DNA from: an uncultured Verrucomicrobiae bacterium
GTDB taxonomy: Bacteria > Verrucomicrobiota > Verrucomicrobiia > Chthoniobacterales > Terrimicrobiaceae
Assembly (NCBI GenBank): GCA_963706955.1
Contig: CAVPOC010000014.1
Span: 34,282-98,281 of the forward strand
Reading direction: 5' to 3'
DNA length: 64,000 bases
Of the stretch, positions 24,414 to 61,556 are shown piece by piece. The notes below the pieces were generated by a model, which was not told the origin of the DNA, made no database searches, and saw only the letters and a list, made by a program, of their open reading frames with translations. Numbering within the stretch: the first letter of the stretch is position 1; each line of letters begins with the position of its first letter. The position numbers and the translations under genes are program-made.

Positions 24414-24910
24414 ATGGGAACGAAGTAGCTTTAGTTGCGGGGTCCTTTGACGAAACTAGGCGGGCGACCATCGGAGTTGTGTCGCGCAGAACAGCTCGCA
24501 GAATCAGTGAGTGTGAACTTCCGACATCTGAGACGACGCTTGCCAACGGGCGTGAAAGACCCCGGAGGGTGTTACCGCTCTATCTCTATCTTCATCGCCG
24601 TCTGATCCAACTGTGAATGGCTTCGGCAATGCCGCCATGCAAAGCCGAATGCGGGACATCTGCGCGTCGGGTTTGACTGGGGAACGGCAGGTAGTTGTCA
24701 TTGGGCATAGGCTTCAACGCCTCTCATCCCGCACGTTTCTCTCTACTCTCCCGGATTCAGAGAACTCCTCTCTTATAGTGAGATCATAACAGACTAGTAT
24801 TCGGAACCTCACCCAAATCCCGAAAACAATCCGAAGGACTTCATCCTATTGAGAAGGTTGTCATTGTCGTAGTCCACGGACATAGAGAGGGGTTCGAATC
24901 TCAATCGACG

Positions 24911-25384
24911 GGCGCTAGCGCGCCTCGCCAACGATAAAGCTGTTGGCTCCTGAGGTAGGATTGATTCGGCTGCGCCTCACCCCTGCGGGGCTAACCTGCC
25001 GGTCAGTCTGTCTCGCTGCGCTCGGCTCGAACCCAAGGCTTCGAATCCCAAACAATTGGCGCTAGCGCGCCTCGCCAACGATAAAGCTGTTGGCTCCTGA
25101 GGTAGGATTGATTCGGCTGCGCCTCACCCCTGCGGGGCTAACCTGCCGGTCAGTCTGTCTCGCTGCGCTCGGCTCGAACCCAAGGCTTCGAATCCCAAAC
25201 AATTGGCGCTAGCGCGCCTCGCCAACGATAAAGCTGTTGGCTCCTGAGGTAGGATTGATTCGGCTGCGCCTCACCCCTGCGGGGCTAACCTGCCGGTCAG
25301 TCTGTCTCGCTGCGCTCGGCTCGAACCCAAGGCTTCGAATCCCAAACAATTGGCGCTAGCGCGCCTCGCCAACGATAAAGCTGT
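24911..25384 (-). repeat. Tandem array of three identical 147-bp RtT-like tRNA-linked repeats plus a partial fourth
   Basis: Period 147 (ggcgctagcg at 24911, 25058, 25205, 25352); each unit ends (- strand) in AATCCTACCTCAGGAGCCA, the tRNA-Asn last 19 nt, with CCA ends at 25238, 25091 and 24944. Confidence 0.95.
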
Positions 25385-25459
25385 TGGCTCCTGAGGTAGG
25401 ATTCGAACCTACGACCAATCGGTTAACAGCCGACCGCTCTACCACTGAGCTACTCAGGA
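25385..25459 (-). tRNA. tRNA-Asn (GTT)
   Basis: TCCTGAGTAGCTCAGTGGTAGAGCGGTCGGCTGTTAACCGATTGGTCGTAGGTTCGAATCCTACCTCAGGAGCCA folds as a cloverleaf; CCA encoded. Confidence 0.97.
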
Positions 25460-25480: not shown

Positions 25481-25510
25481 TAGCAAAAGCGCAAACCGCT
25501 ACCTTGTCAA
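25481..25510 (-). promoter_or_regulatory. Putative tRNA-Asn promoter (-35 TTGACA)
   Basis: TTGACA on - strand at 25510-25505; -10 box not clearly canonical. Confidence 0.45.
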
Positions 25511-25800
25511 GGAGGTGGCGCTTGTTTGGCGAGCCACGTCGCCAAGTTCCCTTTAACCCATTCTCGACCCTTTCCAGTTTTCAAGAAACGTTCTCTTCTC
25601 ATTGCTTCAGCGCGGGAACGTGCGCTTCCGAATAAGCAAGCAGCCACGGACCACGCCGCCGCTTGGTATGAAAACTCCGGCGATTATCTGGATCGTTGTG
25701 CTCCACGATTCGCCGGCGCACGTCTTCGGTTTGCCCAAGTATGTTTCGCCCGTTGGCTCACTGATGATCGCATACGTAAAGAATCGATCGCTCACACCCT

Positions 25801-25870
25801 CAAACCTACGATTCGCCGCGGCGAATTAACAGCCGACCGCTCTATTCGCCGCGGCGAAAGCTACTCAGGA
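25801..25870 (-). pseudogene. Pseudo-tRNA-Asn (5' two-thirds) with two TTCGCCGCGGCGAA palindrome substitutions
   Basis: acctacga/ttaacagccgaccgctct/agctactcagga identical to tRNA-Asn; palindromes at 25812-25825 and 25845-25858. Confidence 0.9.
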
Positions 25871-26101
25871 TCCCGGAAGGTGGAGGTCGGCTAGCAACTA
25901 GCGCAAACCGCTTTGTTGTCAAGGGAACCTGCACGCGACTTGCGTCCTGCTTGAGGCAGATTCGCTACGAGCGCGGCGACTACTTACGGGAAGGTTAATA
26001 CCAAGAGAGATTGCAAATTCGCAACTTCGCAAAGAGATTCGGGGGACACTCGGAGAGCAGCACCCTGAGTCGATCGGCGCGAACAGGCAGTCGCCTCTGC
26101 C

Positions 26102-27756: not shown

Positions 27757-28260
27757 TTGCCGAACTTCTGGTTTCCGATGCCCCGAATTGTGCCATTGTC
27801 TCTTCCACCGAATCCGGAAGAAACAAGTGCGAATACCCCGTGCAATACGCCAAGGCTTCGCTTCTTCGATCGCTTTTTGAATTAGACGATCCTCACCGCA
27901 GAAACGGCTTTCATAAATGCTTTTGAGTCGAACTCTCAATTGTCCAGCGCGACGACCAAGCGGTTGCGAGACACGTCGAGGAAATCGGGTCCGGTCGAAC
28001 TCGTTGTCACCTACTGTTGCCTTGAATCCGTTTTGCTCCCCTGCAATTCGACCTTGGCATTCAGTGATATTGGTAGCCGACGATCGCCACAAACGTGCCG
28101 CACGAGAGCGAGACTGGTCGGACTCGTCAACTTGGCCGATCGAAGTTACTTAATCACACGATTTTCGGGTTTTCCTGAGCAGCCGTCCAATTTGGAAGGC
28201 CGGAACACGAATCTCCGGCAAAGAACGAACTCAGACCGCTGTGGCTGGCCGCTGCTCAGG

Positions 28261-28343
28261 CAATGAACTTTTCGATTGCACAAGTCGCTTCGACGCAGAG
28301 TTTGCGCCGAAGGGATTCTCTGCCATGGCGTCAAATGCTCATA
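28261..28343 (+). repeat. Duplicated corA upstream region and first codons
   Basis: Closely matches 28997-29080, including ATGGCGTCAAATGCTCA (MASNAH). Confidence 0.88.
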
Positions 28344-28345
28344 CC

Positions 28346-28417
28346 TTCGAACCTACGATTCGCCGCGGCGAATTAACAGCCGACCGCTCTGTTCGCCGCG
28401 GCGAAAGCTACTCAGGA
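28346..28417 (-). pseudogene. Second pseudo-tRNA-Asn with the same two palindrome substitutions
   Basis: ttcgaacctacga..ttaacagccgaccgctct..agctactcagga; palindromes at 28359-28372 and 28392-28405; the next ~150 bp are similar to 25871-26023. Confidence 0.9.
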
Positions 28418-28607
28418 ACTTGGGATTCCGAGTCGGCTAGCAAAAGCGCAACCGCTTCTTGTTAAGGAAGCGAAGTTGCGCGTGACTCGCGTCTTCTTTT
28501 GAACAGATTCGCTACGGCCGCGCCCCACTTCTTAGGGGAATGTTAACACCGAGATAGATTGTAAATTTGCAGCAGAAGAGTAAGCGTGCGGGCGCTTCAA
28601 ATCTGCA

Positions 28608-28934
28608 ATGTCCGAGTCTCTCATCGTCTACGTCTCCCTCGTGCTCTGCGGAATGGCATTGAGCTGGTTCTTGCTTTACCGGTCTATCGTGCGGCGGCTG
28701 AGTGTGCGTCATCGGAAGAAGTATTTGGCCATGCGGACGATCTCGGGAGTTCCAAAAAACAGCATCGATTGGCTGTTTTCTTTTCTGCGGTATCTTTGCT
28801 TGGGAGAACACCGTGAGCTTCGAGATTCAACGATGTCCGGTTTGTGCCTGCTGCTTAAGGGATGCACTCTCGCGATATTTCTTCTTTTCGTGTTCTTGAT
28901 GTTCAGTCCGATGTTTCTGCCAGGCGGCCACTAG
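28608..28934 (+). CDS. Small membrane protein, unknown function
   Basis: 108 aa, N- and C-terminal hydrophobic helices. Confidence 0.55.
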   Translation: MSESLIVYVSLVLCGMALSWFLLYRSIVRRLSVRHRKKYLAMRTISGVPKNSIDWLFSFLRYLCLGEHRELRDSTMSGLCLLLKGCTLAIFLLFVFLMFSPMFLPGGH

Positions 28935-29061
28935 ACCTATCAACTCCCCGCTAACTTCAAACAGATCCTGCGCAGCCGAGTTGGCCAATGGCCACTCAGT
29001 GAACTTTTCGATTGCATAAGCCACTTCGACGGCAGAGTTTGCCCCCAAAGGATTCTCTGCC

Positions 29062-30075
29062 ATGGCGTCAAATGCTCACAGCGCGACCGAGGAAGCACCG
29101 AGCCTAGAGGGTCGGGCGCCGGAGATTGTTTCGGTCGAGGAGAATAATGCGAGCGTTCGGAGCTTTTTCCGCTTGGTCGGCGGCCATCTGATCCCCTGCG
29201 AGCCGAACGCGGCCGAGATCATCGCCTACACGTCGCCAACCATGGACGACGAGGCTGAATTGCAGGAGCAATACAAGATCGATTACCACACACTTCAGTC
29301 CTCTCTCGATCCGGACGAACTCTCGCGCCTGGAGATCGAGCACGGTCATATATCCATCATTTTCAAGCGGCCGAAGAGTTTCTGTGCCGGCGACAATTTC
29401 CTGATGAAGCTGACCTCGACCGGCGTCTTTGTTTACGAAAACTATTTGGTCATCGTGATGGCAGACGACTCGCCCATCTTCGAAGGTCGAGTTCCCTTTG
29501 GCGTGCATTCAATCCATGATGTCATCCTGCGCCTGCTCTATCAGGCCACAATGCATTTCGAAGGACATCTCAAGGCGATCAACATGCTGGCGGACTCTCT
29601 CGAGCGGCGGATCAATACCTCACTCGAGAATAAATATCTCCTCAACATGTTCTCGCTCGAGAAGAGCCTCGTGTTTATTCTGAACTCCATCAGCTCGAAC
29701 GGTTCGCTGCTGGAAAGGATGAAAACTTTATCCGAGAAGCTCGGTTTTAATAACGAGCAGGCCGGAATCTTGGAGGATCTCATCATCGAAAATCAGCAGT
29801 GTTACCGGCGCGCAGAGATTCACGCCCAAGTGCTCGCCAACCTCATGGGAACGCGTGCATCCATTGTTGGTCACAACCTGAATCAACTTATCAAAACGTT
29901 TACCATTTGGACGGTGGCGATCATGATTGCGTCCCTGGTTGTCGGGCTTTTCGGAATGAACGTCGCCTTGCCTCTTCCGATGGAAGAGGCCTTCTGGCCA
30001 TTCTACCTTATCATCATTCTGGCAATGATAACTGGCGGAGCGGTCTTCTACCTTCGCCGAATTAATAAATGGTAG
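29062..30075 (+). CDS. corA: CorA-family Mg2+ transporter
   Basis: SSLDPDELSRLE; C-terminal TM pair with GLFGMNV (GMN motif). Confidence 0.9.
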   Translation: MASNAHSATEEAPSLEGRAPEIVSVEENNASVRSFFRLVGGHLIPCEPNAAEIIAYTSPTMDDEAELQEQYKIDYHTLQSSLDPDELSRLEIEHGHISIIFKRPKSFCAGDNFLMKLTSTGVFVYENYLVIVMADDSPIFEGRVPFGVHSIHDVILRLLYQATMHFEGHLKAINMLADSLERRINTSLENKYLLNMFSLEKSLVFILNSISSNGSLLERMKTLSEKLGFNNEQAGILEDLIIENQQCYRRAEIHAQVLANLMGTRASIVGHNLNQLIKTFTIWTVAIMIASLVVGLFGMNVALPLPMEEAFWPFYLIIILAMITGGAVFYLRRINKW

Positions 30076-60636: not shown

Positions 60637-60709
60637 GGTGACCGTAGCTCAATGGTAGAGCTCCAGATTGTGGTTCTGGCTGTTGCGGGTTCGAGTCCCG
60701 TCGGTCACC
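60637..60709 (+). tRNA. tRNA-His (GTG)
   Basis: G-1 then GTGACCG TAGCTCAATGGTAGAGC T CCAGA TTGTGGT TCTGG CTGTT GCGGG TTCGAGT CCCGT CGGTCAC C; full CCA not encoded as written. Confidence 0.96.
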
Positions 60710-60710
60710 C

Positions 60711-61232
60711 ACCGACGGGACGAGAACGTAGTTCGACTACCCTGCGCGTTAGCGCCTTTCCGGGCCGAAGCCACTTTTGTAGAGCTCGCCGTAGGCGAGA
60801 TAATCCCGTCGGTCACCCACGTAGTTCGACTACCCTGCGCGTTAGCGCCTTTCCGGGCGAAGCCACTTTCGTAGAGCTCGCCGTAGGCGAGATAATCCCG
60901 TCGGTCACCCACCGACGGACGAGAACGTAGTTCGACTACCCTGCGCGTTAGCGCCTTTCCGGGCCGAAGCCACTTTTGTAGAGCTCGCCGTAGGCGAGAT
61001 AATCCCGTCGGTCACCCACCGACGGGACGAGAACGTAGTTCGACTACCTGCGCGTCAGCGCCTTTCCGGCGAAGCCATTTTCGTAGAGCTCGCCGTAGGC
61101 GAGATAATCCCGTCGGTCACCCACCGACGGGACGAGAACGTAGTTCGACTACCCTGCGCGTTAGCGCCTTTCCGGGCCGAAGCCACTTTCGTAGATCTCG
61201 CCGTAAGGCGAGATGAGTCCCGTCGGTCACCC
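60711..61232 (+). repeat. Five tandem RtT-like tRNA-His-linked repeats (92-110 bp)
   Basis: Units 60711-60818, 60819-60910, 60911-61017, 61018-61122, 61123-61232, each ending in TCCCGTCGGTCACCC (tRNA-His 3' end). Confidence 0.95.
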
Positions 61233-61433: not shown

Positions 61434-61556
61434 GAGGCGATGGCGAAGCCAATTCGAACCTCGGTTCGACTACCTGCGCGCCAGCGCAATTCTTACCAGC
61501 CGAAGGCCACTTTCGTAGAGCCCTGCGCAGCAGGGATAATCCCGTTAGGGTCGCTA
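61434..61556 (+). repeat. RtT-like unit with Glu-type tail
   Basis: Body homologous to the His units; ends AATCCCGTTAGGGTCGCTA. Confidence 0.88.

Follow-up and report, generated by a model that had tools for sequence, protein, structure and literature searches.

The window, the whole stretch of DNA analyzed here, comprises 64,000 nucleotides from an uncultured soil Verrucomicrobiae bacterium (contig CAVPOC010000014.1, positions 34,282 to 98,281). Its minus strand carries a tRNA-Asn(GTT) gene with an encoded CCA (25385..25459), called by ARAGORN and by the Rfam tRNA model (74.5 bits) and the sole tRNA-Asn found in the assembly. Behind it on the same strand stand three RtT-type units of 147 nt and identical sequence (unit 1, 25238..25384; unit 2, 25091..25237; unit 3, 24944..25090), the first of which starts directly after the tRNA-Asn CCA. 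A partial fourth unit (24943..~24890, minus strand) of 55 nt and 89% identity comprises the trailer and a diverged inverted T-arm-like sequence, GATTCGAACCCC, with no module. Tandem Repeats Finder (TRF) reported a period of 147 nt, 3.5 copies and 98% matches (24893-25403). A BLAST search of one unit against the whole 4.16-Mb assembly returned three copies at 100%, one 55-nt piece at 89% and no other significant copy. The three identical 147-bp units claimed by the original prediction, which a model had made from the DNA letters, were thus borne out by ARAGORN, Rfam, TRF and BLAST.

Organization of the repeat units

Each unit reads, in order, a trailer with a hairpin, an inverted T-arm-like sequence (GGGATTCGAAGCC), GGTTCGA, a four-hairpin module, AATCC, the tRNA-Asn 3' end and CCA. 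Within the T-loop the module sits exactly behind TTCGA, which puts it between tRNA positions 58 and 59; next come AT-CCTAC, the 3' strand of the tRNA-Asn acceptor and CCA. The unit end, AATCCTACCTCAGGAGCCA, is the last 19 nt of tRNA-Asn, with 18/18 tail bases identical, and the short 5' arm is complementary to the T-stem 3' strand of the same tRNA. The two ends of each unit have 52 nt in common, made up of the tRNA tail and the first 33 nt of the trailer. The trailer hairpin, GGCGCGCTAGCGCC followed by AATTGTTT, is terminator-like (25352..25365, and again at 25205-25218 and 25058-25071, minus strand); its stem is kept within the genus and its T-run is not. The elements named in the original prediction were all present (trailer, GGGATTCGAAGCC, GGTTCGAG, CTGACC-GGCA-GGTTAG, CCCC-GCA-GGGG, GGC-GCA-GCC and AATCCTACCTCAGGAGCCA). 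Its three hairpins stood, and a fourth and most conserved one, CGAGC-GCA-GCGAG with tandem G.A pairs, had been overlooked.

Homology with RtT

At the Rfam gathering thresholds, only two tRNAs were called in the window. In E-value mode, each of the three units matched the RtT family (RF00391, gathering cut-off 45 bits) over model positions 1-130, with 42.6 bits and an E-value of 1.5e-6 (25239-25361, 25092-25214 and 24945-25067). The Infernal comparison with the Rfam RtT model, put forward as a check with the original prediction, accordingly yielded a sub-cut-off match in all three units. R1, a covariance model built from 100 distinct and mostly enterobacterial units, scored the window units at 69.8 bits and E 1.9e-15 (25248-25328, 25101-25181 and 24954-25034). 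The claimed likeness to the layout of the E. coli tyrT RtT repeats was right and understated: since the Rfam match is full-length and insert sequence is held in common, the window units are homologs of RtT. The E. coli RefSeq label for the enterobacterial homologs is 'RtT sRNA'.

The window units stand directly downstream of a tRNA on the same strand, end in a tRNA 3' end with CCA and are repeated in tandem, as RtT does. The tRNA-Tyr linkage of the E. coli type locus is absent, the window array standing behind tRNA-Asn; as the family follows nine tRNA species, tRNA-Tyr linkage is not a real requirement of RtT. Membership of the RtT or tRNA-linked-repeat class, with homology to the enterobacterial RtT units, is the best-supported assignment of the array. 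No literature report was found of RtT outside enterobacteria or of T-loop-inserted modules.

Relatives' genomes were compared as a set of 61 that included the window's own (G000), 36 of them of the same family. RtT matches at E<=0.01 were obtained in 17 of the 61, and in 15 of the 36 within the family. Six of the 61 genomes exceeded the RF00391 cut-off, with same-genus units at 45.5-53.1 bits. The relatives' units stand behind tRNA-Asn, tRNA-Ser(TGA), tRNA-Ser(CGA) or tRNA-Glu, or without a tRNA within 1.5 kb.

Structure and covariation of the hairpin module

The module comprises four hairpins with mostly GNA triloops: H1 of 5 pairs, the inner two being tandem G.A/A.G, H2 of 6 pairs, H3 (CCC/GGG) and H4 of 3 pairs. 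Pairs were counted at 17 positions in 150 R1-aligned matches (131 distinct rows), in an alignment fitted to the model structure. A hand-set structure and a covariance model were used in place of RNAalifold, which on the MAFFT alignment A2 gave 8 pairs only, with loops misaligned, and was rejected. Pairing cells amounted to 79.9% vs 66.3% in shuffles, a value reached by 0/500 shuffles. The covariation score was 0.265 vs 0.072 in shuffled alignments (again 0/500) and at most 0.047 in slid controls. Double changes were seen at all six H2 pairs and all three H4 pairs. The tandem G.A/A.G pairs of H1 were present in 126 and 125 of the 131 sequences, with Watson-Crick pairs in their place in 5. Structural covariation among homologs, whose lack the original prediction had named as grounds for giving it up, was therefore found and is strong in the module. 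The tandem G.A pairs and GNA triloops make sense on the tRNA-sense strand only. The unit is a non-coding, sense-strand-specific structured element.

Nested deletion variants of the module were observed, from H1+H4 only up to all four hairpins, and the modules of close relatives show 1-nt indels in loops (80 vs 81 nt). These indels bear on a coding explanation, under which each unit would encode a small peptide, much as the E. coli tyrT repeats contain tpr. An identical TTG-started open reading frame (ORF) of 46 aa is indeed present on the minus strand of every unit, but the single-base loop indels of close relatives shift its frame and conservation tracks base pairing, not codons. The ORF was rejected as coding on the frame-shifting indels, and a unit-encoded peptide is hardly credible.

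Linkage of the units to the local tRNA

Anchors on both sides were present in 138 of the 150 aligned R1 matches, from which the tail statistics were taken. CCA was found in the tail of 119 of these 138 units. An upstream same-strand tRNA was present in the locus for 104, and in 86 of the 104, 17 or more of the 18 tail bases agree with it. The tail-matched tRNAs belong to nine species, namely Lys-TTT (42 units at 19 loci), Tyr (15 at 11), Asn (13 at 4), Arg-ACG (5 at 3), Ser-TGA (4 at 4), Glu-TTC (2 at 2), Ser-GGA (2 at 2), Pro-TGG (2 at 1) and Ser-GCT (1 at 1). The base following TTCG, a position left free by the search pattern, was A in 87 of 100 distinct units.

These figures bear on the possibility that the units are neutral debris, that is, decaying partial tRNA duplicates or integration scars with neither RNA nor mobile function. 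Truncated copies in three genomes (G002, G005 and G014), orphan units without a nearby tRNA and a unit fold no stabler than shuffles would agree with it. It does not account for the retention of CCA and of TTCG with its following A at the frequencies above, nor for the conservation of the module from Verrucomicrobiota to Gammaproteobacteria, where three of the four hairpins show compensatory changes, and we regard debris as improbable. The att-site scar of an integrative element was rejected as a candidate: the units are 147 nt long, with no integrase or element genes and no conserved ORF between the repeats.

In silico removal of the insert gave a complete tRNA-Lys in 20 of the 138 units, all of them from Photorhabdus or Yersinia, which places the module exactly between TTCGA and AT-CC of the T-loop. 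The remaining units have a 5' arm that can pair with the 3' strand of the T-stem and with part of the acceptor strand. At least eight contiguous arm-tail pairs were formed with the unit's own tail in 37/116 cases, vs 38/580 pairings with the tails of other tRNAs. In Photorhabdus (loci L059, L140, L052, L047 and L125) and Yersinia (L057 and L089), up to eight otherwise complete tRNA-Lys(TTT) genes carry an RtT module between TTCGA and ATCC. These module-bearing arrays stand behind two or three normal tRNA-Lys genes. An archaeal-type tRNA intron in the T-loop, which calls for a complete tRNA around the insert and a bulge-helix-bulge splice motif, was considered and rejected on the first of these features, with no formal search aimed at the motif: the window units are without the 5' two-thirds of a tRNA, and complete tRNA-Lys genes with the insert were found only in Photorhabdus and Yersinia.

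The exact insertion after TTCGA in otherwise complete tRNA-Lys genes counts for the main rival explanation, a selfish, ORF-less DNA mini-element that would insert at the T-loop-coding site of tRNA genes and stack there. On arrival, each unit would add a new tRNA 3' end at its left and the module at its right, in the manner of miniature integrative elements, and a recombinase or nuclease acting in trans would recognize the hairpins as folded single-stranded DNA. With a closing C-G pair, GNA triloops form unusually stable DNA mini-hairpins, which counts for such an element. So does the enrichment of the tyrT/rttR region in an E. coli 'mobilome' preparation (bioRxiv 10.1101/2024.07.17.603846). 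Against it, no target-site duplications or terminal inverted repeats were found, and the 5' arm matches each local tRNA, as expected under selection for intramolecular pairing. With the further evidence given below, we consider a DNA mini-element possible and rather unlikely.

A second module on the same scaffold

The array had been presented as a single oddity. Instead, the genome holds at least five tRNA-linked arrays including this one, which is part of a family across two phyla. Among the 39 tRNA genes called by ARAGORN in the genome, five (Asn, Pro-CGG, Ala-CGC, Gly-GCC and His-GTG) have tandem units ending in their own tail. The Pro, Ala, Gly and His arrays comprise the RtT scaffold (arm GGGGATGAGAAC or similar, spacer, GTTCGA, module, ATCC and tail) with another module, termed type-2, which consists of a three-way junction and a CTCGCC-GNA-GGCGAG hairpin and matched no Rfam family at E<=1. 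The units of these four arrays are slightly diverged from each other.

R2, a model of the type-2 module, matched 19 places in the window genome, 38/61 relatives' genomes and 31/36 within the family. An upstream tRNA (His, Ala, Pro, Arg, Glu, Ser or Tyr) was found within 900 nt in 22 of the 28 best R2 loci of relatives. One type-2 unit (in G006) has a tRNA-Asn tail. As the type-2 loci overlap with the RtT loci in tRNA species, including this Asn tail, the two modules share tRNA partners.

Within the window, a tRNA-His(GTG) called by ARAGORN and Rfam (60638..60710, plus strand) heads a second array of five tandem type-2 units of 92-110 nt with tRNA-His 3' ends (60711..61232, plus strand), which scored up to 101.4 bits with R2. 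A lone type-2 module with a tRNA-Glu(TTC)-like 3' end was also detected by R2 (61464..61546, plus strand), preceded by a tRNA-like T-arm/acceptor fragment that ARAGORN did not call. Elsewhere in G000, type-2 sequences, including orphan copies, lie at C6:16902-17300, C8:338290-338839 (minus strand), C10:141085-141420, C3:568777-568855 (minus strand) and C13:71392-71468. Counting both modules, the window genome holds at least 22 units at 8 loci. That one scaffold carries a further module, with no counterpart in Rfam, suggests that function or mobility resides in the scaffold and not in the module. Two unrelated modules on one scaffold, sometimes with the same tail as in G006, also favor the mini-element.

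Distribution across bacteria

A core-motif scan of one genome per species matched at least 120 stretches, with taxa sorted by eye. Many of the matches listed were enterobacterial (Serratia, Yersinia, Photorhabdus, Pectobacterium, Dickeya, Sodalis and others), and Oceanospirillales (Neptuniibacter, Amphritea and Marinobacterium) and Verrucomicrobiota were also among them. Pattern matches in Dehalococcoidia, Alphaproteobacteria, Microbacteriaceae, Acidobacteriota and Lachnospiraceae-like metagenome-assembled genomes (MAGs) looked like other repeat or coding sequence and were left out. R1 was searched against the window and 99 of 144 loci. The 45 left out comprised coding-like or Dehalococcoidia-repeat pattern matches, near-duplicate Photorhabdus/Pectobacterium loci, L054 and L150, which repeat loci of G004 and G009, and the unrelated L165-L169. 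This search returned 163 matches at E<=0.001, the best 150 of which were from Enterobacterales (91), Oceanospirillales (19) and Verrucomicrobiota (40). The Planctomycetia (L102) and Limisphaerales (L094) loci gave no R1 match at that threshold. Among the matches listed, the confirmed range of the RtT module, judged from sequence, is two phyla. The pattern matched viral contigs once, at a contig end, in a Val-Val-Lys tRNA operon regarded as host flank; this counts against a mini-element.

A different dispersed repeat with CGAGCRCAGCGAGATACCCGCGGCGGAGCGCGGGTATGACGG matched the pattern in Dehalococcoidia MAGs (L058, L062, L063, L074, L081, L093, L096, L097, L101, L104, L113, L118, L120 and L126). 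It is present in at least 8 copies in one chromosome, with no ARAGORN tRNA within 400 nt among the loci listed.

A quick module tree of 68 columns, weakly resolved, required 3 changes between Verrucomicrobiota and Gammaproteobacteria vs ~35 with shuffled labels, and a tree holding all Verrucomicrobiota together was not rejected (p-AU 0.79). Within each phylum the tRNA types are mixed, with 23 changes against a minimum of 10. This pattern fits old residence in each phylum together with movement or concerted evolution among tRNA genes. The intermixing of units of different tRNAs within a phylum also counts for the mini-element, as do the nested deletion variants, varying copy number, remnants and patchy distribution.

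Variation within the genus was followed at tRNA-Asn loci with the same trailer. Three full units are present in the window genome and 3-5 in G001; G018 has 3 units of 114 nt with the minimal H1+H4 module. G009 has two loci, the first with 1+1 units and the second with 4 units of 112 nt. At seven other tRNA-Asn loci in the genus, where the trailer differs, units are absent. Copy number at the tRNA-Asn loci of the genus thus ranges from 0 to ~5, and module content also varies. The recent amplification or homogenization proposed for the array is plausible on these grounds, given the 100% identity of its units and the variation in unit number and module content between species. A search for an orthologous empty site via the downstream flank matched that flank in 2 of 19 genus genomes, one being the window's own.

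Copy number and transcription

Read support was taken from Logan contigs, from which starts, ends and strand are not readable. Unit-specific unitig depth in DNA run X1 was 22.1 and 19.9 vs 7.4 and 9.2 for the flanks (~2.2-3 fold), and in DNA run X2 it was 6.98 vs 5.4-8.5 (~1 fold). More than one copy of the unit is supported in one run (X1), and the exact count of three rests on the assembly. Uncovered parts of the array, a joint 25461>25803 (one run) and 13-letter 'between' joints were traced to other organisms or to a pseudo-tRNA copy at 28340-28425. Perfectly identical copies and an X2 unit depth close to that of the flanks are what an assembly artefact would give, in which the three copies are really one unit. 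It is contradicted by the X1 depth, by arrays of 3-5 units in the independent assemblies of G001, G009 and G018, and by the slightly diverged units of the four other arrays in this genome, impossible as collapsed repeats. An artefact is therefore very improbable.

One metatranscriptome (RNA run X15) contained a 177-nt low-depth contig identical to the unit, with unique flanks uncovered and DNA carry-over possible. Its length is 147 + 30, as expected from a closed cycle of 31-mers. In E. coli, RtT is reported to be cut from the tRNA precursor into RNA, and this detection as RNA argues against a mini-element. A K. pneumoniae RNA-seq study (PMC4147364) places RtT RNAs among the differentially expressed RNAs.

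GIY-YIG genes and tRNA-like leaders near the array

A frameshifted GIY-YIG gene (25507..25795, minus strand) lies directly upstream of the tRNA-Asn promoter region; its sequence was confirmed by contigs of three runs, with no differences. It is preceded by a tRNA-Asn-like leader (25800..25897, minus strand) with the same promoter-like upstream sequence as tRNA-Asn. In this leader the 14-nt palindrome TTCGCCGCGGCGAA takes the place of the D-loop and again of the 3' anticodon stem, and the tRNA likeness breaks off in the T-loop, behind GGTTTGA, at the start of the GIY-YIG gene. The same leader, with an intact GIY-YIG gene of 95-96 aa at the T-loop break, was found in G001, G004 and G018, and given this conservation the leader is not simple decay. 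A second copy of the tRNA-Asn-like leader, at 28340-28425 (minus strand), also has the promoter-like upstream sequence, the TTCGCCGCGGCGAA palindrome and the T-loop break. Behind it, in the place that the GIY-YIG gene holds behind the first, stands a small ORF (28240-28330, minus strand). This and another small ORF at 28827-29063 (minus strand) have similar starts, MAENPFGANSA… and MAENPLGANSA….

In G036 (L020:1630-2440, minus strand), two tandem GIY-YIG cassettes lie upstream of a tRNA-Ser(TGA) carrying an RtT unit. Each is preceded by a tRNA-Ser 5' half broken in the anticodon loop and by a conserved structured leader, an arrangement that looks like a mobile cassette restoring its target by bringing a tRNA 5' half. 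An intact 108-aa GIY-YIG gene was also found 50 nt downstream of tRNA-Gly(CCC) on contig C3 of the window genome (L167:1440-1830, minus strand), with a ~50-nt direct repeat (aaggcgcagcttcagcgggcag…gactgtgaaggagg) on either side.

GIY-YIG cassettes that duplicate tRNA 5' parts at the same loci count for a mini-element. Against it, no enzyme is consistently associated: GIY-YIG genes were near 4 of ~21 distinct relatives' loci, and the break in G036 is in the anticodon loop. GIY-YIG was rejected as the enzyme behind the units on this break and on tblastn results, which place it near Asn and Ser-TGA loci only. GIY-YIG is an element in its own right that associates with tRNA genes, and no general partner of the units.

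Proposed explanation and its weighing

The explanation that we favor jointly for these observations, and consider somewhat probable, is an RtT-class array of tRNA top-half mimics that is shaped by unequal recombination and may act as a decoy. The units lie in the tRNA-Asn transcription unit in sense direction, and would probably be made as part of the tRNA precursor. By analogy with E. coli RtT, the tRNA-processing machinery would cut this precursor into CCA-ended RNAs of ~110-150 nt; the CCA-ended processing set out in the original prediction is suggested by E. coli RtT, labeled an sRNA in RefSeq, and by the one RNA contig. The products would present a tRNA-like acceptor end and a T-loop with neither D nor anticodon arm, thereby mimicking the top half of a tRNA. 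Arrays would grow, shrink and homogenize by unequal recombination between the 52-nt common ends, which would explain three identical copies here and 0 to ~5 in relatives. As a best guess, the putative role is that of a decoy or titrating partner for a factor reading uncharged tRNA 3' ends or the T-loop.

Several observations weigh against this explanation. The window units fall 2.4 bits short of the RF00391 gathering cut-off. In an even sample of the phylum, 3 of 151 genomes (own included) matched at E<=1e-4 under stricter filters, and the RtT family is therefore patchy. Truncated remnants are present at the genus tRNA-Asn loci of G002, G005 and G014, and such remnants and patchy spread are as compatible with a dispensable or selfish element as with a functional RNA. 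The conservation of H1 is partly fixed by the retrieval pattern, the alignment is structure-fitted and its sequences are interrelated. G.U vs A.C counts in stems (27 vs 16) give no separation of RNA from single-stranded DNA. The fold of the whole unit, with a minimum free energy of -53 kcal/mol, has no extra stability over dinucleotide shuffles (z -0.17), and the closing stem of the window unit is weak, with 6 contiguous pairs. The window arm GGGATTCGAAGCC pairs better with GGGTTCGA, a pairing that would bury the T-loop. The X15 contig is weak evidence of transcription, silent on ends and strand, and each trailer contains a terminator-like hairpin.

A broader proposal, which we offer tentatively and with low confidence, is that RtT was the first to be named in a whole superfamily of 'T-loop-grafted' mimics of the tRNA top half, with many tRNAs, at least two unrelated modules and active amplification. 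Its scaffold, as read from the aligned units, would comprise a 5' arm, TTCGA, a module, AT and the T-stem 3' strand, the acceptor 3' strand and CCA. The graft site corresponds to the two looped-out bases after position 58 of the T-loop motif, which tolerate insertions. If such a superfamily exists, its RNAs would keep a working T-loop and a free CCA and form a regulated pool of tRNA-end mimics. Possible targets would be factors or toxins acting on tRNA 3' ends, or uncharged-tRNA sensing, and the type-2 module would make up an RNA family both new and abundant.

RtT has been an annotated yet unexplained E. coli RNA for decades. A covarying core turns this one-species curiosity into a comparative problem, in which both Gammaproteobacteria and Verrucomicrobiota keep the module, invariably at a single T-loop position and invariably with the tail of the adjacent tRNA. 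The free CCA, the tandem G.A pairs and those unpaired bases that are conserved are concrete targets for mutagenesis, pull-downs and processing assays.

Comparison with known systems

The closest known system is the RtT RNA (rttR) of E. coli, originally described, reportedly by Egan and Landy in 1978 and Bosl and Kersten in 1991, as 178-bp repeats of the tyrT-tyrV operon. Both systems consist of tandem units behind a tRNA in the same orientation, with the last ~19 nt of that tRNA including CCA, with the same insert after GGTTCGAG (GAGCGNAGCGAGA ... CCCGNAGGG ... GAGGC) and with a 5' arm complementary to the tRNA 3' strand. They differ in host and tRNA, with tRNA-Asn in Verrucomicrobiota here and tRNA-Tyr in Enterobacterales there. 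The 147-nt unit with its trailer hairpin is known from DNA sequence, and its 5' arm, GGGATTCGAAGCC, is complementary to the T-loop, whereas the E. coli arm is GGATGAGAAC.

The tRNA-linked repeats (TLRs) of E. coli K-12, said to have been defined by Rudd in 1999, likewise comprise tRNA 3'-end copies repeated downstream of several tRNA operons. That class is descriptive and confined to one species, in contrast to the conserved structured module seen here in two phyla and with at least nine tRNA species. At tRNA attachment sites, integrative elements and remnants of them that have no ORF accrete in tandem; there too, direct repeats of the tRNA 3' end bound the units and a functional tRNA is kept at one end. 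The present units differ in their size (92-147 nt), in having no integrase, in a junction placed in the T-loop after TTCGA and in a covarying hairpin interior. The RNA antitoxins of type III toxin-antitoxin systems, such as ToxI, are tandem short structured RNA units cut into monomers. Their likeness to the array is in working only, as an array of this kind that would be cut into monomers, and no membership is claimed: no toxin gene lies next to the array, its units derive from tRNA and their sequences are unrelated to those of the antitoxins.

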